Notes: generated by a model not told the origin, from the letters alone. Numbered from the stretch's first letter, positions 5,018 through 63,576 are shown. The stretch: 64,000 nt of DNA from Candidatus Shapirobacteria bacterium (GCA_030698565.1 JAUYJS010000003.1:12187-76186), one strand, 5' to 3'. A program made the numbers and translations.

Positions 5018-5112
5018 CCTCCCTTTTTAAGGGAGGTGATCCCGCAACTGCGGGATCGGTGGGTTTAAAAATAAGATTATCATTGTTAAACCCACGGTCC
5101 TCTTTTAGAGGA
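5018..5112. promoter_or_regulatory. Cluster of four consecutive perfect stem-loops in the divergent intergenic region upstream of ligA
   Basis: The stem-loops are cctccctttttaagggagg, gatcccgcaactgcgggatc, gtgggtttaa...ttaaacccac and cctcttttagagg. Confidence 0.4.
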
Positions 5113-7709: not shown

Positions 7710-8267
7710 ATGAAACTTATTATCGGCCTGGGTAATCCTGATACTAAATATCAAAACACCCGTCACAATCTTGGTCGAATGATTATCGAAAATTTTATTC
7801 AACAACATAAATTATCTTTAAAAAAAATTTCTAAATTATCTGCCCAATTATCAGAATGTAGGAACGGACTGGAGCCTGCCCGCCGCGACGGGTTTCCGTT
7901 CTCTAAAACAATCATTGGTTTCACATCCGAATATATGAATAATTCCGGTGTTGCGGTTAGCAAAATTGCTCAATTTTATAAAATAAATCCAGACGATATT
8001 TACATCGTTCACGACGACCTAGATTTACCAGTAGGGGAGTATAAAATTCAATTTGACCGCGGGCCCGCCGGTCACAATGGCGTCAAATCAATTGTCGATC
8101 ACTTAGGAACCCAAGCCTTCAACCGTATTCGTGTAGGTATTGGCAAGTCGGACAATATTCCAATAGAGGATTATGTTCTTTTGCATTTTACTAAAGCCGA
8201 ACGCGATATAATAAACGATATAATTCCCAAAGTAGTACAGGAATTAGAAAAGATTATTGAAAATTAA
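7710..8267 (+). CDS. pth: Peptidyl-tRNA hydrolase
   Basis: The N-terminus MKLIIGLGNPDTKYQNTRHNLG and the HDDLDLP and GHNG motifs identify Pth. Confidence 0.85.
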   Translation: MKLIIGLGNPDTKYQNTRHNLGRMIIENFIQQHKLSLKKISKLSAQLSECRNGLEPARRDGFPFSKTIIGFTSEYMNNSGVAVSKIAQFYKINPDDIYIVHDDLDLPVGEYKIQFDRGPAGHNGVKSIVDHLGTQAFNRIRVGIGKSDNIPIEDYVLLHFTKAERDIINDIIPKVVQELEKIIEN

Positions 8268-8271
8268 TTTC

Positions 8272-8342
8272 GGGCTCATAGTTAAACGGTATAACGTACC
8301 CTTCGCATGGGTATATTCTGGGTTCAATTCCCAGTGAGTCCA
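8272..8342 (+). tRNA. tRNA-Ala (anticodon CGC)
   Basis: It folds as a cloverleaf by hand. The acceptor GGGCTCA/TGAGTCC contains the G3:U70 alanine identity pair. The anticodon loop is TTCGCAT, the T-loop is TTCAATT, and no CCA is encoded. Confidence 0.8.
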
Positions 8343-8351
8343 CATTCTGAC

Positions 8352-8837
8352 TTAATTCAACCACCACACCGCCGCAGTCAAATAAGTCGCAAAGGTTACC
8401 CAAGCAAGATAGGGTATTAGTAGCCACATTGTCACCGCTTTAATTTTTCTGAATTCTATAATCGTAAAAAAAATCATAACCCACAAAACTAAAATCTCCG
8501 CCACAGCCAAAGTCAAAAGATGAAATTTAAAAAAGATAATTGACCACAATAAATTCAAGGCCAATTGGATCAAATAAATTTTAATTGCCCAACTTCGATC
8601 AGCATCTTTTTGTTTTTTACCAATCTTCTCTGTCCAAATAAAATAAAAGGCAACACCCATCAAAATATATAGAGCCGTCCACACTGGACCAAAAATTCCA
8701 TTCGGCGGCAACAGCGATGGTTTATTTATTTGTGAATACCAGGTTTGAATTTGAGAAATCGTAAAAAGAGAACCTAAATAACCAACGAATAAAGGCAACA
8801 ACAAGGAAATTGCTAGTTTTGGTAAATTAAATTTCAT
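8352..8837 (-). CDS. tspO: TspO/MBR tryptophan-rich sensory protein
   Basis: It is a five-TM protein with FGPVWTALY and Trp-rich motifs. Confidence 0.75.
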   Translation of the reverse strand: MKFNLPKLAISLLLPLFVGYLGSLFTISQIQTWYSQINKPSLLPPNGIFGPVWTALYILMGVAFYFIWTEKIGKKQKDADRSWAIKIYLIQLALNLLWSIIFFKFHLLTLAVAEILVLWVMIFFTIIEFRKIKAVTMWLLIPYLAWVTFATYLTAAVWWLN

Positions 8838-8857
8838 ATTATTAATATAATTGTATC

Positions 8858-9388
8858 TTAAAATTCGGGTAATTTCTCGACCGCTACCAACATTTTATTA
8901 CGCTCATCCTCCTTCAGAAAACAAGATTTTAAGTTCTTTAAATAATCTTTAATAAAGATATAACCGTTGTTATGTATACGACTTAATCGATAAGAAAATA
9001 TTTTTTTTAAATATTCACTATCTGGCTTAAAATATTCAACCATCTCATTATCAATATTGTTATATGATTTTCGGTGAAAATCTTCATGTATATGTAAACC
9101 CATATCATCTGGGATAAACAATATTTCCTCTCTAAAGCCAACTATTGTCGTTAGGTGCCATCTATTTCCAAAGTCACCATTATACAATAATAGTCCAATC
9201 TCCCGACAATGATTATCAATTCTACGTTTTACATACAGACAACCAAAATCACACATAAAACGTTCCTGCTCATTCTCTACTAACTTTAAATTTCCTCTAT
9301 TTCTACAAGCATAAAAATGTCTAAAGCCACCATCAACACATTCCACCTTAAGTGGAACTAATTTCAAATATTCTCGTTCAACACTCAT
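8858..9388 (-). CDS. Hypothetical Cys/His-rich protein
   Basis: It is an ORF with several C..C and H.H.D.H motifs but no confident family assignment. Confidence 0.3.
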   Translation of the reverse strand: MSVEREYLKLVPLKVECVDGGFRHFYACRNRGNLKLVENEQERFMCDFGCLYVKRRIDNHCREIGLLLYNGDFGNRWHLTTIVGFREEILFIPDDMGLHIHEDFHRKSYNNIDNEMVEYFKPDSEYLKKIFSYRLSRIHNNGYIFIKDYLKNLKSCFLKEDERNKMLVAVEKLPEF

Positions 9389-9453
9389 TTTTCCTGATTA
9401 TATCATTGTCTGACTAACTACTTTTATTTATTTTATCTTATAAAATAGTATTA

Positions 9454-9744
9454 ATGAAAACCACACCATCTTCTCTAAAAGATGAACTAAATAAATTCAA
9501 AGAAACTCTGGCTGGTCGACAAAAATATGTTAGAAATGAATTTCAGGCTTATGGATTGGAATTAGCCAAAGAACTTGGTGATTGGAAAAACAAGTCTCTT
9601 TACATTCGATTAGCCAAACAAGTTGATAGAAGTATTCTGGAAAGAGCCCGTTATTTTGTCAAAGATCAGACACCAGCTACCATCAAAACTCCCTATAAAT
9701 TATTCATGTGGAAATTAAAAGAATTGCGAAACAATAAGGTATAA
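9454..9744 (+). CDS. Hypothetical small protein
   Basis: It is an ORF divergent from 8858..9388 with no recognisable motif. Confidence 0.25.
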   Translation: MKTTPSSLKDELNKFKETLAGRQKYVRNEFQAYGLELAKELGDWKNKSLYIRLAKQVDRSILERARYFVKDQTPATIKTPYKLFMWKLKELRNNKV

Positions 9745-9755
9745 TCAAGAGTTAT

Positions 9756-10814
9756 ATGATTTTTCTCAAAACTAATTTAAAAAAGATAATAATCGGTCTA
9801 CTGATATTTTCAGTTGTGACTTTTAGTATCAATAAAATTCGAGCTCAAAGCGACAATATTAACAATCAAAAACTAGATACCAAGAAAGATAAAATTGTCT
9901 TTCCTCAAAAAAAAGACATGAAAGATGAAATTACCCTGACTGGATCCATCGATGCCAGTAAAAAAACTGATCTTAAATTTCAGACATCAGGTCTTTTGGT
10001 CTGGGTGGGAGTCAAAGAAGGGGATAAGGTCAGAAAATGGCAGGCAATTGCCAGTCTAAATAAAAACGACTTGAAAAAAAAGCTACAAGCCGATTTCAAT
10101 GATTACCGATCGGCTCTGTCAACTTTTGACGATACTCAAGACGATTACAAAACCCAAAAGGATAATTTAACTTTGACAGACGATATGAAACGCATCTTGA
10201 TCCGTTCTCAAAATACTCTCAATAATTCAGTCATAAACTACGAACTTTCCGATCTGGCTATAAAATATGCCACCATTTTAAGCCCAATTGATGGCATTGT
10301 CACTCATATTGATCAACCTCTAAGTGGTACCAATATTACCCCAGCTACCGCTACATTTACTATTGTTGACCCAAAAAGTATTTATTTCACTTCATCTATT
10401 AGTCAAGACGATGTCACCAAAATTAAACTTGGTCAAAAAACCGAAATTAATTTAGATAGCTTTCCTGATCAAAATATTAATTCCAAAATTACTTATATTG
10501 CTTTTACCCCAGTTTCAGGCCAAACTTCAACTGTTTATAATGTATATTTTGAACTGCCACTCGACAATTCTACTTTTAATTACCGACTCGGTATGGATGG
10601 TGATGCCAAAATAATTCTGTCTGAATCAAACAATGCCCTTACTCTTCCTGGGAACGCTGTCAAAGAAGAAAATGGTGACAAATATGTTTTAGTAAAAACA
10701 GATGACAATCAATTAACCAAAAAAATAGTTAAAACTGGTATCGAAACCGACGATGATACTGAAATTTTAGAAGGCTTGTCCGAAAATGACCAAGTTGTCA
10801 TCAAACAAAAATAA
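9756..10814 (+). CDS. Periplasmic adaptor (HlyD/MacA membrane-fusion family)
   Basis: It has an N-terminal TM segment and a biotin-lipoyl-like segment (VKEGDKVRKWQAIASL), and sits upstream of an ABC ATPase and permease. Confidence 0.6.
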   Translation: MIFLKTNLKKIIIGLLIFSVVTFSINKIRAQSDNINNQKLDTKKDKIVFPQKKDMKDEITLTGSIDASKKTDLKFQTSGLLVWVGVKEGDKVRKWQAIASLNKNDLKKKLQADFNDYRSALSTFDDTQDDYKTQKDNLTLTDDMKRILIRSQNTLNNSVINYELSDLAIKYATILSPIDGIVTHIDQPLSGTNITPATATFTIVDPKSIYFTSSISQDDVTKIKLGQKTEINLDSFPDQNINSKITYIAFTPVSGQTSTVYNVYFELPLDNSTFNYRLGMDGDAKIILSESNNALTLPGNAVKEENGDKYVLVKTDDNQLTKKIVKTGIETDDDTEILEGLSENDQVVIKQK

Positions 10815-11487
10815 TTCCGAAATCATTTTGGAATTAAAAGATGTTGTCAAATCATATAATTCCGGCGGAACTGTTTTTACAGCGATTAAAGGCGCCAACC
10901 TTCAAATCAAAAAAGGAGAGTTTGTTTCTATTACTGGTCCTTCCGGTTCCGGCAAATCCACTTTAATGCACATCATCGGCCTTTTGGACAACCCCACCTC
11001 TGGTCAAGTCCTTCTTGAAGGCAAGGATATTTCCAAACTTCAAGAACACCAATTGGCTAATTTAAGGAATAAAACATTAGGTTTCGTTTTTCAACAATTC
11101 AATTTATTGCCCAAAACTTCAGCTCTAGAAAATGTCACCTTACCCTTAATTTATTCTGATATTCCTAGCTCAAAAAGAAATGATTTAGGCATAGAAATGT
11201 TAACTAAGGTAAATTTATTAGACAAATTAAAAAATACTCCTGCTCAACTTTCCGGTGGTCAACAACAAAGAGTTGCCATTGCTAGGGCTTTAATTAACAA
11301 TCCCAAAATTATTTTAGCCGACGAGCCAACCGGCAATCTTGACAGTAAATCTGGTGACGAGATCATGGAATTTTTCCATCATTTAAACAAAGACGAAGGT
11401 AGAACCATTGTTTTTGTTACTCACGATCCTGATTTAGCCAAACAAGCCACCCGAATGATTGTTATTAAAGATGGCCGCATATGCTAA
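10786..11487 (+). CDS. ABC transporter ATP-binding protein (MacB/LolD-type)
   Basis: It has Walker A GPSGSGKST, the signature LSGGQQQRVAIARAL and Walker B ILADEPTGNLD. Confidence 0.85.
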   Translation: MTKLSSNKNNSEIILELKDVVKSYNSGGTVFTAIKGANLQIKKGEFVSITGPSGSGKSTLMHIIGLLDNPTSGQVLLEGKDISKLQEHQLANLRNKTLGFVFQQFNLLPKTSALENVTLPLIYSDIPSSKRNDLGIEMLTKVNLLDKLKNTPAQLSGGQQQRVAIARALINNPKIILADEPTGNLDSKSGDEIMEFFHHLNKDEGRTIVFVTHDPDLAKQATRMIVIKDGRIC

Positions 11488-11599
11488 AACCAAGTCCAAG
11501 TGAACTTCTAAATTTCAGCTTTAAATCAATTTTAAAAAAAAAAGTCGGACAGTTCTGACCTCGCTTGGAATTATAATAGGCGTCACCTCTGTCATTTTA

Positions 11600-12703
11600 T
11601 TGACTTCCATTGGCAATGGTCTCAAAAACTATATCAGCAATCAATTTGAAAGCCTCGGGTCAAATTTAGTTTATGTCGCTCCTGGGAAAATTTTTGACGA
11701 CAAAGGCAGATTTAGTAATGGTGGTGGCGGCCATTTTATTACTACTAGTTTTACTCAAGACGACATTTCAGTATTGAAAAGGGGACTCAAAAATACAATA
11801 GTTTTTCCGGCCAACCAAAACCCAGTTGAAATAAAATATAAAAATACTAAAAAAAATACAACATTAGTTGGAACTACCGTCGAATTTGGCAAATATAGAA
11901 ATTTTCTCCCTTCCGAAAATAATGGACGTTGGTTTACCAACGAAGAAAATGACAAAAAAAGTGAGGTTGTTGTTCTGGGCTATCAAATCGCTCAAGATGT
12001 TTTTGGTGACATAAACCCTTTAAATAAAAAAATAATTATTAATGGTAATAATTTAAAAGTTATTGGTATTGTCGACAAAAAGGGCAGTAGTTTTGGCGGC
12101 CCTGATTTGGACAGTTTTGTCTTTATTCCTATTAAAGTCAGCAATAGGATTGTAGGCAACGACCACATCCAAACAATAAGTATTTGGGCTGAAAACAAAG
12201 AAGATATTTCTAATATAAAAGAAGAAGCTAAAAAAATTCTATTAAGTCAAAATTACGACAAAGAAGCTTTTTCTGTTTTTGATTCCAGTCAACTTTTAAG
12301 TAGTATCAACACAATTATTACTGCCCTTACTGTTGCCTTAACCGGTATTGCCGCCATTTCTCTAGTGGTTGGTGGCATTGGAATTATGAATATAATGTTA
12401 GTTACTGTCAGCGAAAGAACCAAAGAAATTGGACTCCGCAAAGCTATTGGTGCTAATCCCAATGCCATTCTCCTTCAGTTTTTAATTGAAGCTGTAATTT
12501 TATCTTGCCTTGGTGGTTTAATTGGTATTTTATTGGGAGCATTAGGCACATTTGCTATCAGTAAATTTTTTCCTGCCCAAATTACTCTTAGTTCTATTCT
12601 ACTAGCTTTTGGGGTTTCCTCTGCTGTCGGTATTATTTTTGGCGTAGCTCCAGCCAGAAAAGCCTCCAAGCTTTCTCCCATCGAAGCTCTTAGATACGAA
12701 TAA
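11600..12703 (+). CDS. ABC transporter permease, FtsX/MacB-like; the N-terminus is probably encoded from 11481 in another frame across an A10 tract
   Basis: The body has a large periplasmic domain and four C-terminal TM segments. Upstream, in frame 0, MLKPSPSELLNFSFKSILKKK runs into the A10 tract. After it, in frame 2, come SRTVLTSLGIIIGVTSVILLTSIGNGL (typical TM1). Confidence 0.75.
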   Translation: MTSIGNGLKNYISNQFESLGSNLVYVAPGKIFDDKGRFSNGGGGHFITTSFTQDDISVLKRGLKNTIVFPANQNPVEIKYKNTKKNTTLVGTTVEFGKYRNFLPSENNGRWFTNEENDKKSEVVVLGYQIAQDVFGDINPLNKKIIINGNNLKVIGIVDKKGSSFGGPDLDSFVFIPIKVSNRIVGNDHIQTISIWAENKEDISNIKEEAKKILLSQNYDKEAFSVFDSSQLLSSINTIITALTVALTGIAAISLVVGGIGIMNIMLVTVSERTKEIGLRKAIGANPNAILLQFLIEAVILSCLGGLIGILLGALGTFAISKFFPAQITLSSILLAFGVSSAVGIIFGVAPARKASKLSPIEALRYE

Positions 12704-12727
12704 GTAGATTTTTGCTATCATTTTAAT

Positions 12728-13291
12728 GTGAGACCTGCATTAAAAAATCATCTTTTTGTATCCATCTCTATTTTTGTAGTAGTCTTCGGTTATTGGTTAA
12801 TATCTCAGCAAAATTTTATCCAATATATTTATTTATTTTTTGGTTTATTACTTGGAACATTTTTTTTGGATATCGACCATATAATTTTTTGGCTATACCT
12901 TAAGCCTGATTTAGACGAAAGTCGTTTAGCCAAAAAAATAATCAAAAATAAAGACTATAAATCCATTCTCATATTATTCAAAACTACTCATCATCATCAC
13001 AATAACTTAATTTTTCATCACTATTTTTTTCAAATCGCTTTGGTTTTAATTTCTTTCTTTGTCTTCACTTCGAGTACCAACGTTTTTGCCATGTCCTTTT
13101 TATTAACTTTAAACACTCATCTTCTGGTAGATGAAATATCCGATTACCAAACCAATCCCAAACATTTACAAAACTGGCTTTTTGCCCGAGAAAACAAGCA
13201 ACTGTCCACCGATAATCTTAAATACTATTTAGGTACATTCATAGTTGTTACTTTTCTTTTTCTCATAAGTCTTCTAAGATTTAAAATATGA
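12728..13291 (+). CDS. Hypothetical His-rich integral membrane protein
   Basis: It has several hydrophobic segments and a His cluster (TTHHHHNNLIFHHYFF). Confidence 0.3.
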   Translation: MRPALKNHLFVSISIFVVVFGYWLISQQNFIQYIYLFFGLLLGTFFLDIDHIIFWLYLKPDLDESRLAKKIIKNKDYKSILILFKTTHHHHNNLIFHHYFFQIALVLISFFVFTSSTNVFAMSFLLTLNTHLLVDEISDYQTNPKHLQNWLFARENKQLSTDNLKYYLGTFIVVTFLFLISLLRFKI

Positions 13292-44484: not shown

Positions 44485-45051
44485 TTAGTTACACTCTCCA
44501 CTCCATAATCCCACTTTATTTTCTTTTGCTATTTTCTCCTCTTCCATAAATTCATCCATTTTATTTACAATAAAATATTTATAAACCACAGCATCTCCCT
44601 GACTCAAAATCGATTTATTAATCATTTCATTATTATAATAAATATATCTCAACAACCTACCATATTTGTCCTTATCTGCTTGGCTTGGATCAGATTCCAA
44701 AACAACTTCTTTGTTTTTAATCTTCAACTCTAAATTATTTTTAGATTTACGGGCAAAGCAAACCATTATTTTTTTCTTATCATTCATTTCCGGCGCATCT
44801 ATTCCCAAAAGCCGCACTTCTTCTTTGTTATTATTTTTTATAACTTCAATCGTATCGCCATCAATTACCCTATTCACTAAATATTCAGTCTTCTCAGGTT
44901 CTTTGTTTTTATAAGTAACTAAACCCAATAAAACAAAAGTTATCAGAATAAAAATATTTAAAATTCGAGTTATATTAGCCGAATATTTCCTTGGCGACGT
45001 CATAAATATCTTCATCTCCTTTTTTAGTATTTTCGGCCACGCCACTAACAT
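44485..45051 (-). CDS. Thermonuclease (SNase-like) with an N-terminal anchor
   Basis: It has VIDGDTIEV...VRLLGIDAPE. It is inserted between dnaX and ybaB. Confidence 0.65.
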   Translation of the reverse strand: MLVAWPKILKKEMKIFMTSPRKYSANITRILNIFILITFVLLGLVTYKNKEPEKTEYLVNRVIDGDTIEVIKNNNKEEVRLLGIDAPEMNDKKKIMVCFARKSKNNLELKIKNKEVVLESDPSQADKDKYGRLLRYIYYNNEMINKSILSQGDAVVYKYFIVNKMDEFMEEEKIAKENKVGLWSGECN

Positions 45052-47696: not shown

Positions 47697-48383
47697 CTAT
47701 ATTTTATTACTTTGTAAGCACTTTAATCTGTCAAGACTATTTATTGATCCGTCACCATTGAAATCTTCTAAAGGATTACACGGATCTTTAGTCACCGTTG
47801 GAACTAATGCTACCGAAGGGGTTGCTGTCTTAGAACCATTAAGACAAAAATTATAATCTACAGAGTTTATCACTCCATCATTATTATAATCAGTGTTTCG
47901 ATTGCAACTAGGAGCACCACTAGGGCTAGCAACTGCTACTGTTGGAGCCAAAATTATCGGAGCTACAGTAGGAACCACCTCATTTCCAGTATTAGCAACC
48001 TTAAAAGTATAAGGTACACCGCTATTGTCAAATATTTCTTCCCCGATTCTAATTCTATAATAGTAAGTTACACTAGACTTTAATGGTGACAATAAAATTT
48101 TATGATCAGTTGTTGCTTCTGTTTCCACAGCCCTCAACAATAAACTAGCTGGATTAGTTCCATATTCCACCACGCCTTGTGTTGCTTTATCCGAAACCCA
48201 AGATACACTTGCACTTTTTCCATCTTCGCTTGGATCAGCCATCACATTTTTTGGTTCAGTCTCTGCCGCCGCACCACTCATATAAGTCTTAACCGTATTT
48301 ACACCCAAAACACCCAATACAATTACTAGCACCAAAATTATACCTACAATAATTGTTTTAACATTTATGCTTCCTTTGATCAT
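47697..48383 (-). CDS. Membrane-anchored surface protein with an FN3/purple-acid-phosphatase-N-like domain and a C-terminal pair of dockerin-like Ca-binding repeats
   Basis: It has an N-terminal TM segment, VSWVSDKATQGVVEYGTN...VTYYYRI, and two repeats: DYNNDGVINSVD and DFNGDGSINSLD. Confidence 0.5.
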   Translation of the reverse strand: MIKGSINVKTIIVGIILVLVIVLGVLGVNTVKTYMSGAAAETEPKNVMADPSEDGKSASVSWVSDKATQGVVEYGTNPASLLLRAVETEATTDHKILLSPLKSSVTYYYRIRIGEEIFDNSGVPYTFKVANTGNEVVPTVAPIILAPTVAVASPSGAPSCNRNTDYNNDGVINSVDYNFCLNGSKTATPSVALVPTVTKDPCNPLEDFNGDGSINSLDRLKCLQSNKI

Positions 48384-49075
48384 AAAAGTCTCAAAAATAG
48401 TGCAGAAAAGACACTAACTATTCCAAACACCATTAATCCAACAGTTGACCCAACACTGCCAGCCTTTGGTAACTCAGCCTGAGTTGTACTAGCTGAAATG
48501 GTTGGTGTGGCAGTTGTAGTTGTAGGGGTTGTGTTGGTTTCTGAACTAGCCGTAATAGTATATGATCCGCTTTGATTAGTTGAACAGTCAATTATATCTA
48601 CACTAGTAGACTTCATAATATTCGAATCAATAGTTGATCCGGTTTGACAAGTAAAATTAACACTGGCAGTACCAGTATTTTTAGCCTTAAAAGTAATCAC
48701 TGCTAAACTTCCAGCCAGGCTTCTATCTTCTACCGTAGTACTATTAGTATCATAAGCACTAAAAGAAAATTTACCTAAAGTATTATCAGATAGTGACTGT
48801 AAATTATCCATAGTAAAAGCAGTACCAGTTGCAGGTTTGGTTATCGAAACAATCTCTAATTTATTGACATCAAAAGTACCCACCACATCCACACCACTAG
48901 CTGTTTCTGTACCACTAGCCACGCCTATAGTCACATCAAAATTTGTACCGTTGACTATTGAAGAGCTAGTCGGAGTTAAAGTTAAATGCGGAGTTGCCAA
49001 AGCCACAGTTGGCGATACAGCAAACGCTAAAAATACCAATCCTACAACTAAATTTAGTTTTATACCTTGTCTCAT
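48380..49075 (-). CDS. Secreted cohesin-like domain protein with a C-terminal LPKAG sorting signal
   Basis: It has a signal peptide. The beta-rich domain (FDVTIGVASGTETASGVDVVGTFDVNKLEIVSI...GSLAVITFKAKNTG) resembles cohesin. It ends with LPKAG plus a hydrophobic stretch and RLL. Confidence 0.45.
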   Translation of the reverse strand: MRQGIKLNLVVGLVFLAFAVSPTVALATPHLTLTPTSSSIVNGTNFDVTIGVASGTETASGVDVVGTFDVNKLEIVSITKPATGTAFTMDNLQSLSDNTLGKFSFSAYDTNSTTVEDRSLAGSLAVITFKAKNTGTASVNFTCQTGSTIDSNIMKSTSVDIIDCSTNQSGSYTITASSETNTTPTTTTATPTISASTTQAELPKAGSVGSTVGLMVFGIVSVFSALFLRLL

Positions 49076-49696
49076 TTATTTAAGAACTTGAACATCTAAT
49101 TTATTGCTCGAGTAAATCAAATTCTTCCCCGTAGCATTCTCTATAAACATAGTAGCAGATTCCTTATTTTCATTACCAGTACTAATTTCAAATTCAAAAT
49201 CCCCCGTCTTTTTGGGTACTACATCAAACTTAATCAAAGGCAATATTTCACTTGCACTTAATTCGACTCCGTTCTTTTCGGAAATTAGATAATTAACCAC
49301 AATTACACTTTGTTTCTCGCTAATTTTACTAAAAGTTGGTTTAGTCAACTTAGAATCAAAAGTTAAACGACTCACAGCAAAAGCTGTTGGATCATATTTA
49401 ATATATATTTCGGCTGTATCTAATGACTGAGTTGTTTTACTAATTAAATTTAATTCCACAGGATATTTTTTTCCAACAACCATACTTTTATTTGGGGTTC
49501 CGAAAATTAGACCTAAAGTTTCTGGCTCAACCACTTTTTTATCTTCAACAACATTTTGAACAACATTAGTTGAAGTATCTGTTTTAACTTGTGGTTTGTT
49601 TTTCTGTTCCAAAGAATTTACCAACACAACACTTTCCAGGATTACTAATATTGCCACTATCGGGATAATAACTCCCATTATTTTTTTTTCTTTCAT
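49076..49696 (-). CDS. Secreted/anchored cohesin-like domain protein
   Basis: It has an N-terminal TM/signal and AEIYIKYDPTAFAVSRLTFD...ILPLIKFDVVPKKTG. Confidence 0.4.
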   Translation of the reverse strand: MKEKKIMGVIIPIVAILVILESVVLVNSLEQKNKPQVKTDTSTNVVQNVVEDKKVVEPETLGLIFGTPNKSMVVGKKYPVELNLISKTTQSLDTAEIYIKYDPTAFAVSRLTFDSKLTKPTFSKISEKQSVIVVNYLISEKNGVELSASEILPLIKFDVVPKKTGDFEFEISTGNENKESATMFIENATGKNLIYSSNKLDVQVLK

Positions 49697-49714
49697 ATTC
49701 TTTCCTTAAAAATT

Positions 49715-51382
49715 TTAATACAACCGATCACTTCTTTGTGATAACGCTACTTTAAAAAGATTCATATCATTAAATGATAATTTACAATTACCATCCAAAT
49801 CACCTGGCATATTATCGCCCGCATTAGCATCCGGAGTACTGCCAATTTTATTCTTTAAGTAAACAAAATCATTTCCATTTATTAAGCCATCCTGACCTGC
49901 TTCTGCTCCTGCCCTAGCTACATCTCCGGAAGAGATTGGTACACCAGAAAAGTCCACGGCTGCGCTGGCAGTATCATTAGTCAAAGTTAATTCACCCACA
50001 TATTTATCATAAAAAGCACTTTGGTTATTTATTCCAAATTTTTCCTGTAAATGTTTTGGCCCTTTTATAAATAGAGAAACATTTTGAGTAAAAGGAAAAT
50101 CTGCCAATCGCAAACTACCCTTGAATACAGCCAAATCACCTTTAGAAGTACCATCTTTAGTAACCACCACACCATCATAAGTTTTTGTCACCCCAGCATT
50201 ATTCATCGCAATTACTTTTACTGGCCAATTTACAGCACAAGCCGAACTAGCAGTTTTAACCCCGCCAAAGGTGACTTTAAAATTTACGAAAGGGAATGAA
50301 GCGTTCGCTGGATCATATATAGAATATGCCTGAGTTTTCGATGCAGTAAAATTAAAAATCACGTTTGGTCCCACGGCTGATGATCTAGCTTGATCAAAAC
50401 TAATATTGCCTGATCCCATACTGGTTCCCATAAAATAAATTATCCCCAATCTAATCGCATCTCCAACTGGCAAATCAGCTTCGGCCAAATCGGATTTAAC
50501 AGACAATTCTAAGCAATTATTACCAACATCTCTTGCATATTCAATTCTAGAAAAGTTAGGATCTAACCAGAATTTATAAAATCGTGGAGATAAATTATTT
50601 CCATAACACACAGTGACCTTGGCTGAATTAACTTTATTTCTATTAGTCTTTAACCATACATTTTGTCCGAATTCAATTCCTACATCATCAACAACGATAC
50701 TATCACTACTATCAAAACCTTCACGACCAAAAGACAAAGAACCATTAACAGTGGTAGTAGTAGGTGCCACAGGATTACTTGCAGGCGGGTTGTTGTTGGC
50801 GACAGGAGCAGCCTCTGAAATCTTATAACTCGTTCCGTTAATCGAGGCCATAGTAATTATTTTATCTAGTTTATCTGGATTCACACCAGTTACTTCAGTT
50901 TTTTCAGAAATCAAATCTATTGCGCCAGTACTTACTTTTAAGGCTTTAAATTGAACAGTAACAGCATTAAATACTGTACTAACATTTGAATTACTAGGAT
51001 TTGTATTGAGTAAAGTAATATCTAAACATTTTTTATTAGCGTAATCGATCGGACTATCAGGAATTAAAACGGTATCAAAAGAAGGATCTGTAATAATTGC
51101 TTGTCCTTGACCTTTTGCATAAGACAAATTAGCAGGATCATAACAAAGATAGGTACTCAAAGCGGTCACTTTAGCATTTTTTGGGTCAACTTTAATAACA
51201 ACATTTACATACCCACCCACGGTTCCAGGAATCTCAGTTTCAGGAGCTAACCACATTTTCCCGTCAGAGATAAATGCCGCTCCCCTTCTAGTATCCTGGT
51301 TTTTTTTAACTAAATTAATCGAAACAGCCAACCCTAAGGCTATAATAAAAGTAGTTATTAAAATTGTTTTTTTACTTTTCAT
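49715..51382 (-). CDS. Secreted multidomain protein with a cohesin-like N-terminal domain and C-terminal dockerin-like repeats
   Basis: It has a signal peptide and VNVVIKVDPKNAKVTALSTYLCYDPANLSY. The C-terminus carries GQDGLINGNDFVYL and GDLDGNCKLSFNDMNLF. Confidence 0.45.
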   Translation of the reverse strand: MKSKKTILITTFIIALGLAVSINLVKKNQDTRRGAAFISDGKMWLAPETEIPGTVGGYVNVVIKVDPKNAKVTALSTYLCYDPANLSYAKGQGQAIITDPSFDTVLIPDSPIDYANKKCLDITLLNTNPSNSNVSTVFNAVTVQFKALKVSTGAIDLISEKTEVTGVNPDKLDKIITMASINGTSYKISEAAPVANNNPPASNPVAPTTTTVNGSLSFGREGFDSSDSIVVDDVGIEFGQNVWLKTNRNKVNSAKVTVCYGNNLSPRFYKFWLDPNFSRIEYARDVGNNCLELSVKSDLAEADLPVGDAIRLGIIYFMGTSMGSGNISFDQARSSAVGPNVIFNFTASKTQAYSIYDPANASFPFVNFKVTFGGVKTASSACAVNWPVKVIAMNNAGVTKTYDGVVVTKDGTSKGDLAVFKGSLRLADFPFTQNVSLFIKGPKHLQEKFGINNQSAFYDKYVGELTLTNDTASAAVDFSGVPISSGDVARAGAEAGQDGLINGNDFVYLKNKIGSTPDANAGDNMPGDLDGNCKLSFNDMNLFKVALSQRSDRLY

Positions 51383-51384
51383 TA

Positions 51385-53244
51385 TTATTTTAATTTATTT
51401 TCTAACCAGATAGCAAAATCGACTAAACTTACATACCCATCACAATTAGCATCAGCTTGGTAATTATTCTTAATAACCTTTCGTCCATCTCCCGTATATT
51501 CACCTACCCAAATATCAAAATCAGACTTATCAGCTTTTGCACTTGTACAACTAAAACGACCACTTTTTCTCTTAATATTGTCAGAATCGTTAGCGCAAGG
51601 GGTGCAAACTGCCGCTACCGGATGATCTAACTTACAACCATTCTCACTTGTGTAACAATCTTTATCGCCTCCACAATTTTTACAATTTCCACCAACGGCT
51701 AATTCACTACAGACCGTCCCTGTATACACCCATCTTTTGTCAGTCAGTGCCACCGAACTACTCGTTCCTGTACAATTTATGGTTCCTGATTGATTAGTTT
51801 GATCAGTTTCATTAATTTTGCAACATACATAATTTTTATTACTACAAGTACCTGTCACTTTAGATCCTTCAGCAGCACATATTGGCGCACCCATACAAAT
51901 AGATCCAGACGGGCAACTGTCTGCTACTGGTGCTACCGGATGATCTAACTTACAACCATTCTCAGTGGTGTAACAATCTTTATCGCCACCACAATTTTTA
52001 CAATTTCCACCAACGGCTAATTCACTACAGACCGTCCCTGTATACACCCATCTTTTGTCAGTCAGTGCCACCGAACTACTCGTTCCTGTACAATTTATTG
52101 CCGCTACTGTTGCAACACAAACACCACTCGCATTTCTAGTTAGAGGTGCCACACATTTATCTACACAATCCCCAGTTGTTCCAGTTAACTGTTTAAAATC
52201 TTTCCCTTTATTAGTACACACTTCCGGTGCTAATTGACTATTACAAACCCGGCTACCACCACTACCACTACATTCACATTTGTATGGTCCTCCATCACTT
52301 GAAAATTGTCCACAAGCCGTTCCACCAAAACACTGAGTGCAATCTGCGGCGGTTGCGGTCGTCTGCCCCACTCCATTCTGATTGTCTGTAGGACAAACTT
52401 GCGGCTTTGCTGAGCAAGTAAATCTCACCCCTTCTTCAACATCTACAGTGTCATTTGGGTTATTACATTTTGGACAATATTTTTCTACAAGCTCTACTAA
52501 CTTCTTCTGATAACTATCAACATAAATCTTACATTGCGATTCTGCGTCATAACATGTAAATACACCACATGGACCAGTGTCACTAACAGAAGTCTGCTCA
52601 TAGCTAATACAACTTTTATCATCTTTACTATACCAATAGGTTTTTCCTACTCTGTTACCAACATCAGTTGGAGCCACACATTTCCCACCAGTACAAGTCA
52701 AACCAACTTGGCAAGTAGTTTGAGATAACCCAGCTGTACAGGCTTCATTTTCAGCCGCTGGATGAGCTTGTTGACAACCACTTAATGCTGTATAGCACTC
52801 AACTTTACTTTTATCATTAGGATAGCAACCTAAACAATTACTAACCGGTCCACTAGTACATACATTATTAATAACTTGAAATCTCGTTTCAGTTAGCGGA
52901 ATTTTTGGATTATCACAAGTTGTTGATGCTGGTGGTTGTACCACCACACCGCCTGCTGCTGGTTGTGCTTCTGGAGTACAGTTCCTTCTCGTCTCTGCTG
53001 TTACATCCCTTTCTTGACAACCAGCAGGTAAAATTGATTTTATTTGCCTTGTTTGAAAACCAGAAGGATAACAAATTCCCCATTGATCAAAAAAAGTATA
53101 GTCGCAAGCTACTGTCGCCTTGCTTCTATTCTCCTGATTATTCTGCACTAATTTTGTCATCGCCGGCAAGGCAACCGCCATCAACAACAAGCCAACCATT
53201 ATAGGAATTTGAGCGAAACCAGCAATTTTTTTAAATTTAGCCAT
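51385..53244 (-). CDS. Secreted Cys-rich repeat protein with a dockerin-like C-terminus; it contains a recent 106-codon tandem duplication
   Basis: It has a signal peptide and more than 60 Cys. The module INCTGTSSSVALTDKRWVYTGTVCSELAVGGNCKNCGGDKDCYT.ENGCKLDHPVA occurs twice and is nearly identical at the DNA level. The C-terminus reads DANCDGYVSLVDFAIWLENKL. Confidence 0.4.
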   Translation of the reverse strand: MAKFKKIAGFAQIPIMVGLLLMAVALPAMTKLVQNNQENRSKATVACDYTFFDQWGICYPSGFQTRQIKSILPAGCQERDVTAETRRNCTPEAQPAAGGVVVQPPASTTCDNPKIPLTETRFQVINNVCTSGPVSNCLGCYPNDKSKVECYTALSGCQQAHPAAENEACTAGLSQTTCQVGLTCTGGKCVAPTDVGNRVGKTYWYSKDDKSCISYEQTSVSDTGPCGVFTCYDAESQCKIYVDSYQKKLVELVEKYCPKCNNPNDTVDVEEGVRFTCSAKPQVCPTDNQNGVGQTTATAADCTQCFGGTACGQFSSDGGPYKCECSGSGGSRVCNSQLAPEVCTNKGKDFKQLTGTTGDCVDKCVAPLTRNASGVCVATVAAINCTGTSSSVALTDKRWVYTGTVCSELAVGGNCKNCGGDKDCYTTENGCKLDHPVAPVADSCPSGSICMGAPICAAEGSKVTGTCSNKNYVCCKINETDQTNQSGTINCTGTSSSVALTDKRWVYTGTVCSELAVGGNCKNCGGDKDCYTSENGCKLDHPVAAVCTPCANDSDNIKRKSGRFSCTSAKADKSDFDIWVGEYTGDGRKVIKNNYQADANCDGYVSLVDFAIWLENKLK

Positions 53245-54996: not shown

Positions 54997-55683
54997 TACG
55001 GGCGATTCATGAATCGCCCCTACATTTAAAATTTTTCGGATTATTTCTATCTCTTTCCCACATTATCGGATTCATTCTTATATATTCTCTAATTTTTTTT
55101 AACTCAATTTCGTTTCTAACGATATGTTCATAATAATTCCGTTGCCAAACAAACATTCCAATCTCTCTAGATGCATTCATTTTCAAATATCCGATAATTT
55201 TTGACAACATCGATCTCTTCGGTAGGGGCGATTCATGAATCGCCCTGTTTAATTTCCTAATTGATCCATTTATCAATTTGGGCGATTCATGAATCGCCCC
55301 TACATTTTTTATTATTAAAATTAAATGAATATGATTGGGCATTATCTGAAAAATATCCATTACCAAATCAAATCTTGCCTCTAATTTTATTAACCAATTT
55401 TCAATTATTAAACCATTATTATTCGAGATCATCTTGCCATTAATAATGGCACCAAACATTTGCCTTCTTTCAAATGAACATATGGTTATAAAATAATATC
55501 CTCCGCCTGAATAATTCCATTTTTTTAACCGGATTGACCTACGGTGATAATCCATATGTAATAATTATTACATATTATTATTTGTACGGGCGATTCATGA
55601 ATCGCCCCTACCCGTCATCCCGAATTTATTTCGGGATCTAAATCCCGCATTCCTTTTTTGGGCGATTCATGAATCGCCCCTAC
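54997..55683. repeat. Five copies of REP family A surrounding and inside RAYT gene 1
   Basis: The copies are at 54997-55023, 55222-55247, 55279-55303, 55585-55612 and 55659-55683. Each contains GGGCGATTCATGAATCGCCC. Confidence 0.8.
55007..55555 (-). CDS. REP-associated tyrosine transposase (RAYT, IS200/IS605-like HUH), copy 1, with REP-A sequences translated in frame
   Basis: It has YYFITICSFERRQMFG (motif I), MPNHIHLIL (HUH) and WQRNYYEHIVRNEIELKKIREYIRMNP (catalytic Tyr region). GAIHESP occurs twice, and the C-terminal CRGDS is encoded by REP-A copies. Confidence 0.75.
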   Translation of the reverse strand: MDYHRRSIRLKKWNYSGGGYYFITICSFERRQMFGAIINGKMISNNNGLIIENWLIKLEARFDLVMDIFQIMPNHIHLILIIKNVGAIHESPKLINGSIRKLNRAIHESPLPKRSMLSKIIGYLKMNASREIGMFVWQRNYYEHIVRNEIELKKIREYIRMNPIMWERDRNNPKNFKCRGDS

Positions 55684-58023: not shown

Positions 58024-60204
58024 ATGTCCGGCGAAAATCTAAGCATTTTGGAAGTTAGACTACCACAAAACAACGAGCACACTTTGGAATCGATGTCCTC
58101 TCTTCTGTCAAATTTCACTCAGTTTTCATCTCCCAGCCTTTTACAAAACCTTTTTAATCGTAGAAAAACCCTAGGTTCCCTAGAAATTGTCCTAACCAAA
58201 GGCCAAATCCATTTCTTTTTTGCCTCGGACAAAGAAAACTCAGAATTCTTTCGCTCTCAAATTTTAGCCCAATACCCCACTGCCATTATTCGAGAAAGCG
58301 AAGATTATTTCTCCAATTATATCGATAATTCCCAAGACAAAAATATTTTTTTTAATCAATTAGGCAATTCCCGATCTTACAGTTACCCTCTAAAAACAGC
58401 CAAAGATTTCAAAGAAACTGATCCTTTAAATTCAGTATTAGCTCCACTATCTCACTCCACCAAACCCGATGATTTTTTTGTTTTCCAAATAATTTTAGCT
58501 TCGCCTCCTAAAAATTGGCAAAGCGGAATTATGAATACAATTCAAAATGGAATTTTAGTTGATCGACAAAAAAATCTTCACCAAGCCCATCCAGATCGGG
58601 CAATTTTCGAACAAAAAATTCAATATCCTGGTTTGGCCGCCCAAATAAATTTATTTTCCAATAGTGCCGCTCTTTTATCCTCTGTCTCTTCATCATTCGG
58701 AATTTACACTTCACCTCGCGGAAATTTTATAAAGACCTATATTCCCGGTCATTTTTCCAAAAGCAAACTAAAAAAATCTATTCTCTCTCGTAAATTCGAA
58801 ACTAAGCTAAAAAATCAAATTTTAAACACAGACGAATTAGCTGCCCTTTGGCATTTTCCCAACACAATTACCAAACTTCCCAATATTGCTTGGGGCAAAA
58901 AATTATATTCTGATCCTCCTGAAAATTTGCCAACAGCTAGTAGCTTAACTCCAGAAGAAAAAAATAAAGTTACTTTTTTTGCCAAGACAGAATTTAGAAA
59001 TAAAGACGCTATTTTCGGTATTAAAGAAGGCGAAGATCGCCGCCGCCATACCTATATTATCGGTAAATCTGGTACCGGAAAAACTACCTTAATCGCCAAC
59101 ATGGCCATTGACGATATCCGCAAAGGCCGAGGTGTAGCCGTTATTGATCCTCACGGCGACTTGTGCAACACCATCCTTGACTATATTCCTAGCCATAGAA
59201 TTAACGATTGTTGTTATTTCAACCCAGCCGATCCAGATTACGTCTATCCATTAAATGTTTTGGAAGCTCAAAACGAATCTCAAAAAGAATTAGTCGCCTC
59301 CGGTGTTATTTCTATTTTCAAAAAACTTTATGGCAATGTTTCTTGGGGTCCTCGACTCGAACACATTTTAAGAAATACACTTCTTACCTTGGTCAATGTT
59401 CCTAACTCTAATTTGGTCAATGTCGTTGAAATTTTAACCAACAAAAGTTTTCGTGAAAAAGTTGTCAGTCAATTAAATAATCAGACTTTAATCAATTTTT
59501 GGCACAATGAATTCGACAGAATGGATCCAAAATTTCAACAGGAATCCGTTTCTCCTATTTTAAATAAAGTTGGTCAATTTATTTCCTCAACTAACATAAG
59601 AAATACCATAGCCCACTCCAAATCTAAAATCAGGATTCAAGACATAATGGATCAAAAAAAGATTTTAATTGCTGATTTATCAACTGGTAAATTGGGCGAA
59701 GACAACTCCGCACTTTTGGGTGCCATGTTGATTACCCAAATTCAGTTGTCTGCCATGAATCGAGTCTTCCAAACAGCCGACGAACGTTCTGATTTTTATC
59801 TTTATGTCGATGAATTTCAAAGTTTTGCCACAGAAGCCTTTATAAAAATTCTTTCCGAAGCCCGCAAATTTAAATTAAATTTAATTGTCGCCAACCAATA
59901 CATGGCTCAACTTGATCGGACAATTCAAGATGCTATTTTGGGCAACGTTGGATCAATTATTTCTTTCGTTGTGGGCAATCAAGACGCTTTTGTTCTCCAA
60001 AAAGAATTTGGGCCGGAATTTCCAGCTGATGATTTAGTTAAAATCGGTCGCTATCAAGTTATCTGCAAACTTTCCATTGATTCAGAAACCACTCAACCAT
60101 TTTATGCTACCACCCTTCCACCTTTGTCTTGTAAAAACCAACAACGCGAAAAACTTATTCATACCTCGCAAGAACGATGGGGCAAGCGAAAAGACAAGGC
60201 CTAA
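58024..60204 (+). CDS. FtsK/HerA/TraD-superfamily P-loop ATPase (DUF87 / type IV secretion coupling-protein-like)
   Basis: It has Walker A HTYIIGKSGTGKTT, the HerA/TrwB-like motif VIDPHGDL and Walker B YLYVDEFQSF, in 726 aa, with no obvious TM segments. Confidence 0.5.
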   Translation: MSGENLSILEVRLPQNNEHTLESMSSLLSNFTQFSSPSLLQNLFNRRKTLGSLEIVLTKGQIHFFFASDKENSEFFRSQILAQYPTAIIRESEDYFSNYIDNSQDKNIFFNQLGNSRSYSYPLKTAKDFKETDPLNSVLAPLSHSTKPDDFFVFQIILASPPKNWQSGIMNTIQNGILVDRQKNLHQAHPDRAIFEQKIQYPGLAAQINLFSNSAALLSSVSSSFGIYTSPRGNFIKTYIPGHFSKSKLKKSILSRKFETKLKNQILNTDELAALWHFPNTITKLPNIAWGKKLYSDPPENLPTASSLTPEEKNKVTFFAKTEFRNKDAIFGIKEGEDRRRHTYIIGKSGTGKTTLIANMAIDDIRKGRGVAVIDPHGDLCNTILDYIPSHRINDCCYFNPADPDYVYPLNVLEAQNESQKELVASGVISIFKKLYGNVSWGPRLEHILRNTLLTLVNVPNSNLVNVVEILTNKSFREKVVSQLNNQTLINFWHNEFDRMDPKFQQESVSPILNKVGQFISSTNIRNTIAHSKSKIRIQDIMDQKKILIADLSTGKLGEDNSALLGAMLITQIQLSAMNRVFQTADERSDFYLYVDEFQSFATEAFIKILSEARKFKLNLIVANQYMAQLDRTIQDAILGNVGSIISFVVGNQDAFVLQKEFGPEFPADDLVKIGRYQVICKLSIDSETTQPFYATTLPPLSCKNQQREKLIHTSQERWGKRKDKA

Positions 60205-62252: not shown

Positions 62253-62909
62253 TTATAATTTTAAGTTTTTTAGTATATCATCCGCATTCATTACCAATAA
62301 TCCGCCATTCTTAATTAAAAAATTAGGTGTAAAACTATTTTCATCACTAATTCGTCCAGGCACCGCCATAACTTCTCGCCCTTGTTCCAACGCCATTTTT
62401 GCCGTCACCAACGACCCACTTCTTTGACTCCCTTCTACCACTAAAACCCCTAAACTCATTCCAGAGATTATCCTGTTCCTCCTCAAAAAATTTACATTTT
62501 GAATCAAAGTATTATCCTTATATTCTGACACAATTAATCCACCATTTTTCAAAATATTTTGATAAATATATTCGTTGGATTTAGGTGAAATAATATTAAC
62601 TCCCGATGCCAAAACAGCTATTGTTTTACCTTTATTTTCGAGACAAATTTTATGCGCTTCTGCATCAATTCCCAATGCCATTCCCGACACAATCACCCAA
62701 TTATTTCGGACCAATTCTGGTACCAAATTCCTCATCATACTTTGGCCATACCAGCTCATCTGTCTACTTCCTACCACGGCTATTTTTTTATTTTCCTTTA
62801 ATAATTCGATGTTCCCCAAACAAAATAATTTACCAGGACAATCCGGTATCTCTCTTAATAATTCCGGAAATCTTTTATCTTTAATTCCAATTTCAACCGT
62901 TTGCAACAT
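62253..62909 (-). CDS. dprA: DNA processing protein DprA (Rossmann-fold core only)
   Basis: It has IAVVGSRQMSWYG...IVSGMALGIDAEAH...GGLIVSEY. Confidence 0.85.
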   Translation of the reverse strand: MLQTVEIGIKDKRFPELLREIPDCPGKLFCLGNIELLKENKKIAVVGSRQMSWYGQSMMRNLVPELVRNNWVIVSGMALGIDAEAHKICLENKGKTIAVLASGVNIISPKSNEYIYQNILKNGGLIVSEYKDNTLIQNVNFLRRNRIISGMSLGVLVVEGSQRSGSLVTAKMALEQGREVMAVPGRISDENSFTPNFLIKNGGLLVMNADDILKNLKL

Positions 62910-62919: not shown

Positions 62920-63576
62920 TTAATAACAAACATCTTTCTGCCAATTTTTGGGATTATTATCAATATATTGTTTAATCGCCCAATATTCCTTTTCTGTCCG
63001 GATAATCCGATCATAATATCGGGCTTGCCAGGTGAAAAATAACTGGTGACGGTTACATTCTGATTTGACCGCCGCCTTAAATAATTTAATTGTATTGGGA
63101 ATAATTTGCCTTGATTTAAATCCATTTTCCCGTAGAGACGCACTGTGTGCGTCTCTTTTCAATTCCCGATTATTTTGGTTTATCGGTTTGATTTGATTGA
63201 TGATTGGGGAATTTGTTTTGAGACGCATACAATGCGTCTCTACAATGGGTTGATTTTTAATTTCCATTATCAAATGCACATGATTGGGCATAATCACCCA
63301 ATCATCTATTTTAATATTTTTCCTAATTTCCGAGGTTTTTAATAATTCCTGTTTAGCAATTTCTCCCGCCTTGGACAATTTCATTTGACCATCAACAATT
63401 TTTCCCAAGAATTTATTTTTATTATGGGTACAAATGGTAATAAAATAAAACCCTGATTGAGAATAATTCCAATTTAATAACCTCGCCGATTTCACTCGAA
63501 ATTTATCCGCAAACAAATCTGGGTTATCAACAAACATTACATTAATTGTAATATTTATTGCATTAATATGTTGCAT
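62920..63576 (-). CDS. REP-associated tyrosine transposase (RAYT), copy 2, cognate to REP family B
   Basis: It has FYFITICTHNKNKFLG, MPNHVHLIM and WQARYYDRIIRTEKEYWAIKQYIDNNP. ETHCMRL and RDAHSASLRENG are in-frame translations of REP-B copies. Confidence 0.75.
   Translation of the reverse strand: MQHINAINITINVMFVDNPDLFADKFRVKSARLLNWNYSQSGFYFITICTHNKNKFLGKIVDGQMKLSKAGEIAKQELLKTSEIRKNIKIDDWVIMPNHVHLIMEIKNQPIVETHCMRLKTNSPIINQIKPINQNNRELKRDAHSASLRENGFKSRQIIPNTIKLFKAAVKSECNRHQLFFTWQARYYDRIIRTEKEYWAIKQYIDNNPKNWQKDVCY

Follow-up and report, generated by a model that had tools for sequence, protein, structure and literature searches.

A conserved gene cluster of Candidatus Shapirobacteria that probably encodes a non-cellulosomal cohesin–dockerin assembly

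INTRODUCTION

What do cohesin and dockerin modules do in a bacterium when no polysaccharide-degrading enzyme lies beside their genes? The question is raised by a cluster of five consecutive minus-strand genes, here called p1 to p5 (47697..53244), in 64,000 nt (64 kb) of DNA from Candidatus Shapirobacteria (GCA_030698565.1, JAUYJS010000003.1:12187-76186), a member of the Microgenomates group of the Patescibacteria or candidate phyla radiation (CPR). This whole stretch is referred to as the window, and all coordinates are counted from its first nucleotide unless they belong to another contig. Proteins identical to those of the window are on record from a metagenome-assembled genome (MAG) of this organism, which bears out the bacterium of reduced type that had been surmised as host in a preliminary description of the sequence. 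Cohesin and dockerin modules are known outside cellulosomes; to our knowledge, the means by which uncultivated CPR bacteria recognize and hold a host or substrate are largely obscure, beyond the type IV pili of Saccharibacteria.

The open reading frames (ORFs), called as p1 (47697-48383; 228 aa), p2 (48380-49075; 231 aa), p3 (49076-49696; 206 aa), p4 (49715-51382; 555 aa) and p5 (51385-53244; 619 aa, 54 Cys), are all present exactly as the preliminary description listed them, and the N-terminal signal or anchor that it noted for each protein is seen as a hydrophobic segment at the start of all five. The junctions are tight: p5 and p4 are separated by 2 nt, p4 and p3 by 18 nt and p3 and p2 by none, and p2 and p1 overlap by 4 nt. 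We conclude that the cluster is probably an operon for a non-cellulosomal cohesin–dockerin assembly on the envelope of a monoderm-type CPR bacterium, a reading drawn from sequence comparison and predicted folds.

RESULTS

Conserved gene order and the coupling of p5 to p4

The modules on which the argument turns are the cohesins of p2, p3 and p4 (cohP2, cohP3 and cohP4), the dockerin at the C-terminus of p4 (docP4), which follows a domain named X for its position between cohesins and dockerin, the W-type dockerin tail of p5 (docW), and a pair of Ca2+-loop units in p1. A scan of the GTDB species representatives with the p2 family gave 16 loci, nearly all from Shapirobacteria, and a scan of metagenomes with the p1 family gave at least 261 relatives, with 80 loci kept; the synteny set of GTDB genomes and metagenomes comprises 94 loci, or 71 clusters when p1 is grouped at 95% identity. 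The order is the same wherever a locus covers the whole region, namely, a protein ending in X-dockerin, the p3 cohesin, the p2 cohesin, the FN3 protein with its putative half-dockerins (p1) and rpsU, and the stop–start overlap of p2 and p1 is retained in 82 of 88 loci.

Upstream of this block the loci adopt one of two designs. In the split design, seen in the window, a head protein carries the W-dockerin, and a separate p4 carries the cohesin(s), X and dockerin; in the fused design, the head is joined straight to X-dockerin, and both the p4-type cohesin and the W-dockerin are absent throughout the locus. With near-duplicates removed, there are 18 split and 8 fused loci, and none with a W-dockerin and no cohesin; at the single apparent exception to the rule, the contig stops before the upstream gene. 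The fused state occurs at no fewer than four separate places on a tree of p3, p2 and p1, and every fused protein retains the p5-type leader and a Cys-rich head. Thus, the W-dockerin and the p4 cohesins appear to have been gained and lost together, with no true exception, in at least four independent switches. Taken with the fusions, this coupled gain and loss is evidence of the Rosetta-stone kind for a single functional unit made up of p5 and p4 and joined through the W-dockerin and the p4 cohesin. In two loci (L016 and L068), where p4 has two cohesins, the core block is flanked on either side by one W-dockerin protein, two in all, which hints that the number of cohesins may match the number of cargo proteins.

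Partner-specific covariation

Covariation of module divergence was assessed by Mantel-type permutation tests over 23–51 loci, which replaced an earlier mirror-tree analysis of 11 genomes that was too confounded by phylogeny. Divergence of docW tracks that of cohP4 (0.72; p<0.0005), and neither that of cohP2 (0.01) nor that of cohP3 (−0.10). Conversely, docP4 tracks cohP2 (0.50 over 51 loci, p<0.0005; 0.39 over 23 loci) and not cohP3 (−0.05 and 0.01), and the two p1 units also track cohP2 (0.34 and 0.39; p≤0.001), with values near zero for cohP3. That docW and cohP2 show no signal provides an internal control for any general tendency of surface proteins to evolve together. Lineage-wide synteny, fusions of the Rosetta-stone kind, covariation between specific partners and the joint gain and loss of docW and cohP4 together argue that the modules work as true binding pairs, and the same four lines of evidence support the interpretation as a non-cellulosomal cohesin–dockerin scaffold that had been put forward in the preliminary description.

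No glycoside hydrolase, polysaccharide lyase or carbohydrate-binding module (CBM) was found in the cluster, in the window or in approximately 90 syntenic loci, and, as had been noted earlier, none adjoins the cluster, its immediate flanks being rseP and rpsU. In a cellulosome, glycoside hydrolases that bear dockerins are assembled on a scaffoldin of several cohesins, commonly together with a CBM; this arrangement is absent here, and p4 has two cohesins at most.

Anchor: p2

The p2 protein comprises a signal peptide (residues 1–27, within 48380..49075, assigned from the sequence and the family alignment), a cohesin (residues 28–178; 48542-48994) with a Cys pair that is conserved in the family, a Thr-rich stalk, and a C-terminal LPKAG motif (48458-48472), followed by the transmembrane (TM) segment SVGSTVGLMVFGIVSVFSALFL and a basic RLL tail. 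The layout is, therefore, that of a ScaE-type anchor: signal peptide, cohesin, LPXTG-type signal, hydrophobic segment and basic tail. The consensus for the sorting motif in the family is LPQTG, with LPKTG in the closest strain and LPKAG in the window; there are also weak matches to Gram_pos_anchor and NF053819. Pfam Cohesin (PF00963) recognizes 28 of 45 p2 homologs, but not the p2 of the window itself, for which the NCBI label is nevertheless ‘cohesin domain-containing protein’. The cohesin-like domain noted earlier in p2 is thereby upheld at the family level, and, judged by its sequence features, p2 would be an anchoring cohesin of the sortase-substrate type. A sortase-assembled pilus was considered and rejected, given the single cohesin and the absence of pilin motifs in the sequence and family alignment. 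Cohesins resembling that of p2 are also found outside the Shapirobacteria-type synteny (in loci L018–L020 and in L017, where a 1101-aa protein at 1180-4485 combines a p5-type leader with Big_2 and Cohesin (28.8 bits) domains), and cohesin proteins occur in MAGs of Anaerolineae and Saccharibacteria.

Adaptor: p4

A leader at the N-terminus of p4 (residues 1–35; 51278..51382) consists of a TM helix and LVKKNQDTRRGA, with Gln29, Thr31, Arg32, Arg33, Gly34 and Ala35 invariant in the family. It precedes two cohesins, at residues 38–191 (50810..51271) and 236–340 (50363..50677). The predicted structure shows the jelly-roll fold, in keeping with the cohesin-like domain described earlier, although there are two such domains rather than one. 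The second, for which the evidence is a match to the cohP4 hidden Markov model (HMM; i-E 2.6e-5) and Foldseek matches to cohesin dyads, is a strain-specific insertion in a region where the model is of low confidence; a close strain (L025) lacks it, and has one cohesin instead of two. Among p4 homologs, 3 of 11 are positive with Pfam Cohesin, the best value among p2 and p4 orthologs being 5.6e-16, whereas the window p4 gives no match. The cohP4 HMM also matches p2 (1e-6) and p3 (5e-5).

The X domain (residues 363–482; 49937..50296) is β-rich and stands directly before the dockerin. Within its approximately 120 residues is a conserved block (VLNFKxAFxGV..C..NWP...FIKGPKHLQxKYG..DFSxYP), which has no sequence match in Pfam or the PDB, including to known X modules; structure searches with the whole p4 model are dominated by the cohesin and do not isolate the X fold. 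It adjoins the p4-type dockerin in every case, in split and fused designs alike. In the dockerin itself (residues 483–555; 49718..49936), loop 1 is interrupted by an 8-residue insertion and loop 2 is canonical (DLDGNCKLSFND). Matches to Dockerin_1 (PF00404) are seen in 12 of 13 tails of the p4 family (best 5.4e-12), the window copy alone having none, and the profile of the family aligns with both repeats of a solved type-I dockerin (1ohz_B; 3.3e-6). The type-I dockerin proposed earlier for p4 is thus supported at the level of the family, the regular spacing of loop 1 does not hold for the window copy, and on these comparisons the module is best described as a compact type-I-like dockerin behind an X domain. 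Cys382 in the X domain and Cys533 at position 6 of dockerin loop 2 are invariant across the family and may form a disulfide that staples X to the dockerin.

Head: p5

A set of 1.84 billion representative proteins contains no relative of p5 (MDP4009471.1, annotated as ‘hypothetical protein’) over its full length; the matches are modular only and involve the leader, a TSR-like Cys module and the tail. In a close strain, the corresponding p5 fragment is approximately 49% identical, with its modules in a different order, whereas the neighbouring genes are 88–93% identical (100% for S21).

The leader (residues 1–43; 53116..53244) reads K-I-A-G-F-A-Q-I-P, followed by a hydrophobic helix and LVQNNQENRSKA. 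Its family pattern, [KR]G[FIL]xQ[IL]P, a hydrophobic stretch and LVQxxQENRSxA, has no matching model in Pfam or NCBIfam, and it is kept on Cys-rich proteins that are otherwise unrelated. The leaders of p4 and p5 are alike in having a TM helix and then LVxxxQ[ED][TN]R[RS]xA; ahead of the helix, the p5 type further has [KR]G[FIL]xQ[IL]P, whose G-F motif is missing from p4. The shared leader may be a lineage-specific sorting or processing signal. A type IV prepilin-like leader was rejected, as position +5 of the family motif [KR]-G-[FIL]-x-Q-[IL]-P is Pro or Ala, and not Glu.

The leader is followed by the TSR-like Cys module (residues 44–92; 52969..53115), of which relatives have up to 12 repeats (P0082); some relatives match Pfam PTN_MK_C (P0084; 5.7e-12), and the window copy has no Pfam match. 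Beyond it, a 6-Cys module is present as a duplicated pair (residues 383–437 and 489–543; 51616..52098) and as an older copy (residues 108–164; 52753-52923). The pair corresponds to a 173-nt direct repeat (51608-51780 and 51926-52098; 97% identical), giving an offset of 106 residues in the protein; it was found by direct comparison and did not show in a BLAST self-comparison.

The W-type dockerin tail (residues 558–619; 51388..51573) is distinguished by a Cys in position 4 of the loop and by a helix reading D-F-S-I-W, and scores 86.6 bits with the docW HMM. The profile of the tail family matches solved type-I dockerins over the two repeats (8x39_A, 1e-7; 2mte_A from CelS, 7e-4). The C-terminal string quoted earlier for p5 is present, and is of dockerin type at the level of the family; in the window copy, loop 2 is canonical (DANCDGYVSLVD-FAIW) and loop 1 is degenerate. 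The slot between rseP and p4 is occupied by highly diverse Cys-rich proteins, with 36–88 Cys in the GTDB loci and 12–117 Cys in the fused forms, and the only two things that the slot proteins have in common are the N-terminal leader and the W-dockerin tail. On other metagenomic contigs, three GH43-like proteins and one alginate-lyase-like protein (9.7e-15) carry this tail as well. The GH43-like proteins (601, 595 and 466 aa; sub-threshold matches) are encoded consecutively on L023 (5992-11007), next to groES/groEL and enolase, and have ordinary signal peptides and near-identical W-dockerin tails.

The FN3 protein, p1

In p1, a TM segment or leader (residues 10–41, within 47697..48383, assigned from the sequence) precedes an FN3 domain (residues 44–127; 48003-48254) that scores 34.5 bits with Pur_ac_phosph_N against a cutoff of 30, confirming the FN3/purple-acid-phosphatase-N-like domain suggested earlier. 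Two Cys-bracketed Ca2+-loop units follow, at 47832-47909 and 47703-47786, and bring the total of canonical 12-residue Ca2+ loops in p1–p5 to four; all of the loop strings quoted in the preliminary description are found in the sequences. Dockerin_1 scores 30 bits on p1 (cutoff 22.9), aligning twice, each time over HMM positions 2–14 only. Each unit has the form C-x3-5-DYNKDGVINSLD-x3-C, a single loop–helix; between the two lies a Pro/Thr linker that varies, and one unit alone is present in several orthologs. A type-I dockerin was rejected for p1, since the units are separately bracketed by Cys and split by the linker rather than packed as a compact module of approximately 60–70 aa with two 22-residue repeats, each made of a 12-residue Ca2+ loop and a helix: the duplicated loops claimed earlier exist and exceed the Dockerin_1 cutoff, but they do not have type-I spacing. 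It is possible that p1 carries a minimal, single-loop, disulfide-bracketed ‘half-dockerin’. On this sequence-based classification, the cluster would encode three dockerin types: type-I-like in p4, W type in p5 and single-loop units in p1.

The membrane-helix cohesin, p3

The TM helix of p3 (residues 7–28; 49613-49678) has an invariant Pro12 and nearly invariant Glu21-Ser22, and the conserved charged residue within the helix suggests an intramembrane partner. After a linker of approximately 30 residues comes a single cohesin (residues 60–206; 49079-49519), which scores 18.4 bits with Pfam Cohesin (cutoff 24.1). Its AlphaFold model (pLDDT >90 over residues 61–206, with a long N-terminal helix ahead) presents a nine-stranded β-sandwich jelly-roll that is superimposable on solved cohesins, as expected from the cohesin-like domain noted earlier. 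Nearly all of the top 50 Foldseek matches in the PDB are cohesins (E 4.5e-9; TM-score to target up to 0.79), overwhelmingly bona fide dockerin-binding ones. By sequence profile, the p2 and p3 families show no more than marginal similarity to solved cohesins.

Across the cluster, the Pfam Cohesin and Dockerin_1 models, which the preliminary description had named as a check, match p1 directly, p3 weakly, and p2, p4 and p5 at the family level. HMM matches and the cohesin fold are thus both in evidence, the latter as the jelly-roll of the p3 and p4 models. Searched by themselves, the window p4 and p5 gave nothing with Pfam and NCBIfam; the cluster proteins gave no match in PHROGs, and the module HMMs found no cohesin or dockerin elsewhere in the window.

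Genomic setting

The cluster lies among housekeeping genes, with frr and rseP upstream and rpsU, yqeY, ybeY and dnaX downstream. Its base composition is ordinary, which points to a cluster native to the genome; together with the fixed location between rseP and rpsU across the lineage, this rules out a horizontally acquired island, and, on this comparative evidence, we regard the cluster as a core operon native to the lineage. A scan for promoters and terminators gave 31 sites where 29.6 are expected, and was thus uninformative.

In one relative (L001), a 660-aa PA14-domain protein (3118-5100) occupies the interval from frr to rseP, as an insertion immediately upstream of the cluster. In the Shapirobacteria RIFOXYD1-type contigs L003 and L004, a paralogous mini-cluster at another genomic site (7992-13219), downstream of ATP-grasp/RimK-like and type IV secretion system-pilin genes, encodes, in order, a W-dockerin protein (319 aa), a cohesin with a W-dockerin (346 aa), two cohesins with X and dockerin (550 aa) and a GH18 protein.

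Elsewhere, the window encodes a PilB-type T2SSE ATPase (468-2210, minus strand), a VirD4/TrwB-like coupling ATPase (58024-60204, plus strand), DprA (62253-62909, minus strand) and a secreted staphylococcal-nuclease homolog (44485-45051, minus strand); genes for pili, type IV secretion and DNA uptake belong to the usual CPR toolkit. Additionally, a perfect 20-nt palindrome, GGGCGATTCATGAATCGCCC, occurs seven times (5818, 46596, 55000, 55226, 55280, 55588 and 55660; none expected). Five copies lie in or around an IS200/Y1-transposase-like gene (55007-55555, minus strand; 25.1 bits), two of them inside the ORF, where they are read as ‘GAIHESP’, and a second, sub-threshold Y1_Tnp-like ORF is found at 62920-63576 (minus strand). 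The palindrome and the Y1 genes look like a repetitive extragenic palindrome (REP)/REP-associated tyrosine transposase (RAYT)-type repeat system in a CPR genome.

DISCUSSION

The assembly that we envisage is built on p2, which would be exported, cut at LPKAG and joined to peptidoglycan by sortase. The X-dockerin of p4 would plug into the wall-anchored p2 cohesin, in parallel with the X-dockerins that bind ScaE, and the W-dockerin of p5 would, in turn, plug into the p4 cohesin(s), leaving the Cys-rich, TSR-like and fast-evolving head to face outward. The p1 units probably dock on p2 too, and p3 would offer a cohesin near the membrane to some ligand. In this way, a conserved anchor (p2) and adaptor (p4) would present at the cell surface a head (p5) that is exchangeable and evolves fast, the adaptor presumably being bypassed in those lineages where the head is fused directly to X-dockerin. 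The head would adhere to a host cell or substrate glycan, or recognize it; such a function seems most likely because the head is hypervariable, adhesin-like and the only constant cargo. Given that enzyme-like proteins of presumably related organisms bear the W-dockerin tag, the scaffold may accept other cargo as well.

Several observations weigh against this model. The split/fused association has a Fisher p-value of 4e-6, which ignores phylogeny, and the covariation can reflect shared selective regimes instead of contact. The p2, p4 and p5 modules of the window fall below Pfam thresholds, their identity coming from family profiles and predicted folds, and a single Ca2+ loop, the second, is canonical in p4, and likewise in p5. 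The p1 units match just the loop part of the Dockerin_1 model and form no compact dockerin, such that their putative binding of a cohesin is the weakest link. The p3 cohesin has neither a co-varying nor an inferred partner among the dockerin modules of the cluster, and a motif search of the window and the flanks of the loci gave no sortase gene; one complete Microgenomates genome is reported to encode a sortase (PMC7143001). The evidence for adhesion is the character of the domains, which are TSR-like, Cys-rich and hypervariable. Moreover, the hydrophobic helices of p1, p4 and p5 are followed, approximately 10 residues beyond the helix, by conserved motifs; these may mark sites of cleavage or else be the juxtamembrane portion of anchors that stay uncleaved, in which case the topology of ‘display’ would change.

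Three other explanations deserve consideration. The cluster could be a small cellulosome-like complex, in which the anchor and adaptor mainly show dockerin-tagged polysaccharide-degrading enzymes encoded elsewhere, with p5 as a CBM- or CttA-like substrate binder. The W-dockerin tails of the alginate-lyase-like protein and of the GH43-like trio speak for such a complex, as does the GH18 gene adjoining the paralogous p4-like cluster of another Shapirobacteria genome. However, the GH43 match is under threshold, and neither the cluster nor its surroundings at the syntenic loci yield an enzyme, nor the window a further dockerin; the constant cargo is the Cys-rich head, which at least four lineages have even fused to X-dockerin. 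We consider enzyme display unlikely on this balance. An architectural role is likewise improbable: p1, p3, p4 and p5, anchored in the membrane by uncleaved helices, would be tied to wall-linked p2 as a tether or S-layer-like lattice. N-terminal helices that lack a classical short c-region, and are long in the predicted models, are in accord with this proposal, as are the universal presence of the cluster in the lineage, its place among housekeeping genes, the translational coupling of p1 to p2 and the covariation of the p1 units with p2. Yet, a purely structural role predicts neither the hypervariability and module shuffling of p5 nor the W-tail on enzyme-like cargo with ordinary signal peptides.

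Finally, there might be no pairing at all, the cohesin folds being generic β-sandwich spacers or glycan binders, the Ca2+ loops structural, and the genes merely those of co-clustered secreted proteins. The weak or negative Pfam results for the window copies, the marginal sequence links of p2 and p3 to solved cohesins and the restriction of the p1 match to the Ca2+ loop all allow for this. It is, however, very improbable in view of the coupling of cohP4 and docW without a true exception, the Rosetta-stone fusions, covariation that is specific to partners and has internal negative controls, and fold matches that are overwhelmingly to genuine dockerin-binding cohesins.

If a non-cellulosomal assembly is accepted, a more specific and tentative proposal is that the operon is a plug-in device for recognition of a host or substrate, with p2 as the anchor, p4 as an optional adaptor and p5 as an exchangeable head that sets the adhesion target; the W-dockerin class, the p1 half-dockerin and the ..LVQxxQENRSxA leader would be parts of it. 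We put this forward as a possibility rather than as the expected outcome. Were it true, the p5 head would determine what the episymbiont sticks to, and there would be two undescribed types of module, the Trp-containing dockerin class and the p1 half-dockerin. In any event, the cluster is a concrete, lineage-wide candidate for attachment to host or substrate, with testable wiring and parts small enough for recombinant expression. It would extend the use of cohesins and dockerins to a complete anchor–adaptor–cargo system without enzymes, and the natural split and fused variants constitute an evolutionary experiment on why adaptors exist. The compact, orthogonal cohesin–dockerin pairs, and possibly the minimal disulfide-stapled dockerin, are of potential use in the engineering of protein display. 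The cohesin label of p2 was already in the NCBI record; a literature search found no description in CPR bacteria of the operon, its wiring, the split/fused alternation, the W-type tail or the single-unit modules of p1.

The closest parallel is ScaE of Ruminococcus flavefaciens, a sortase-anchored scaffoldin with a single cohesin, whose ligands are X-dockerin dyads, among them those of ScaB and CttA (PMC12484212). By analogy, the cluster would combine anchoring of the ScaE type with an adaptor scaffoldin, and is not a cellulosome. It differs from the R. flavefaciens system in having no enzymes or CBM, an adaptor with one or two cohesins only, a hypervariable Cys-rich protein as cargo, and an X domain without detectable similarity to known X modules; in addition, it belongs to a CPR bacterium whose genome is very small, it includes a membrane-anchored cohesin (p3), and the whole forms one compact operon at a housekeeping locus. 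In the glycoside-hydrolase/toxin complexes of Clostridium perfringens and the cohesin of Archaeoglobus fulgidus, the non-cellulosomal modules reside on enzymes or are isolated, whereas here there is a dedicated anchor–adaptor–cargo operon, candidate-phylum-wide, with three putative dockerin types. Like the ScaA/ScaB adaptors of Acetivibrio cellulolyticus, p4 joins cohesin(s) to a dockerin of another specificity class and would thus link cargo to anchor; unlike them, it is minimal, and the adaptor step is optional, being replaced by direct fusion in at least four lineages. Within the Patescibacteria, the cultured Saccharibacterium Southlakia epibionticum has an envelope protein with a dockerin domain, SEML1_0315, which transposon sequencing (Tn-seq) showed to be essential in epibiotic growth; the authors speculate that it targets host glycans (PMC10633639). 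This lends context to the proposed role in adhesion or recognition. SEML1_0315 belongs to a different CPR phylum, and neither a cohesin partner nor an operon has been described for it; the likeness, drawn from its description, is that of a dockerin-domain protein in the cell envelope of a Patescibacterium.

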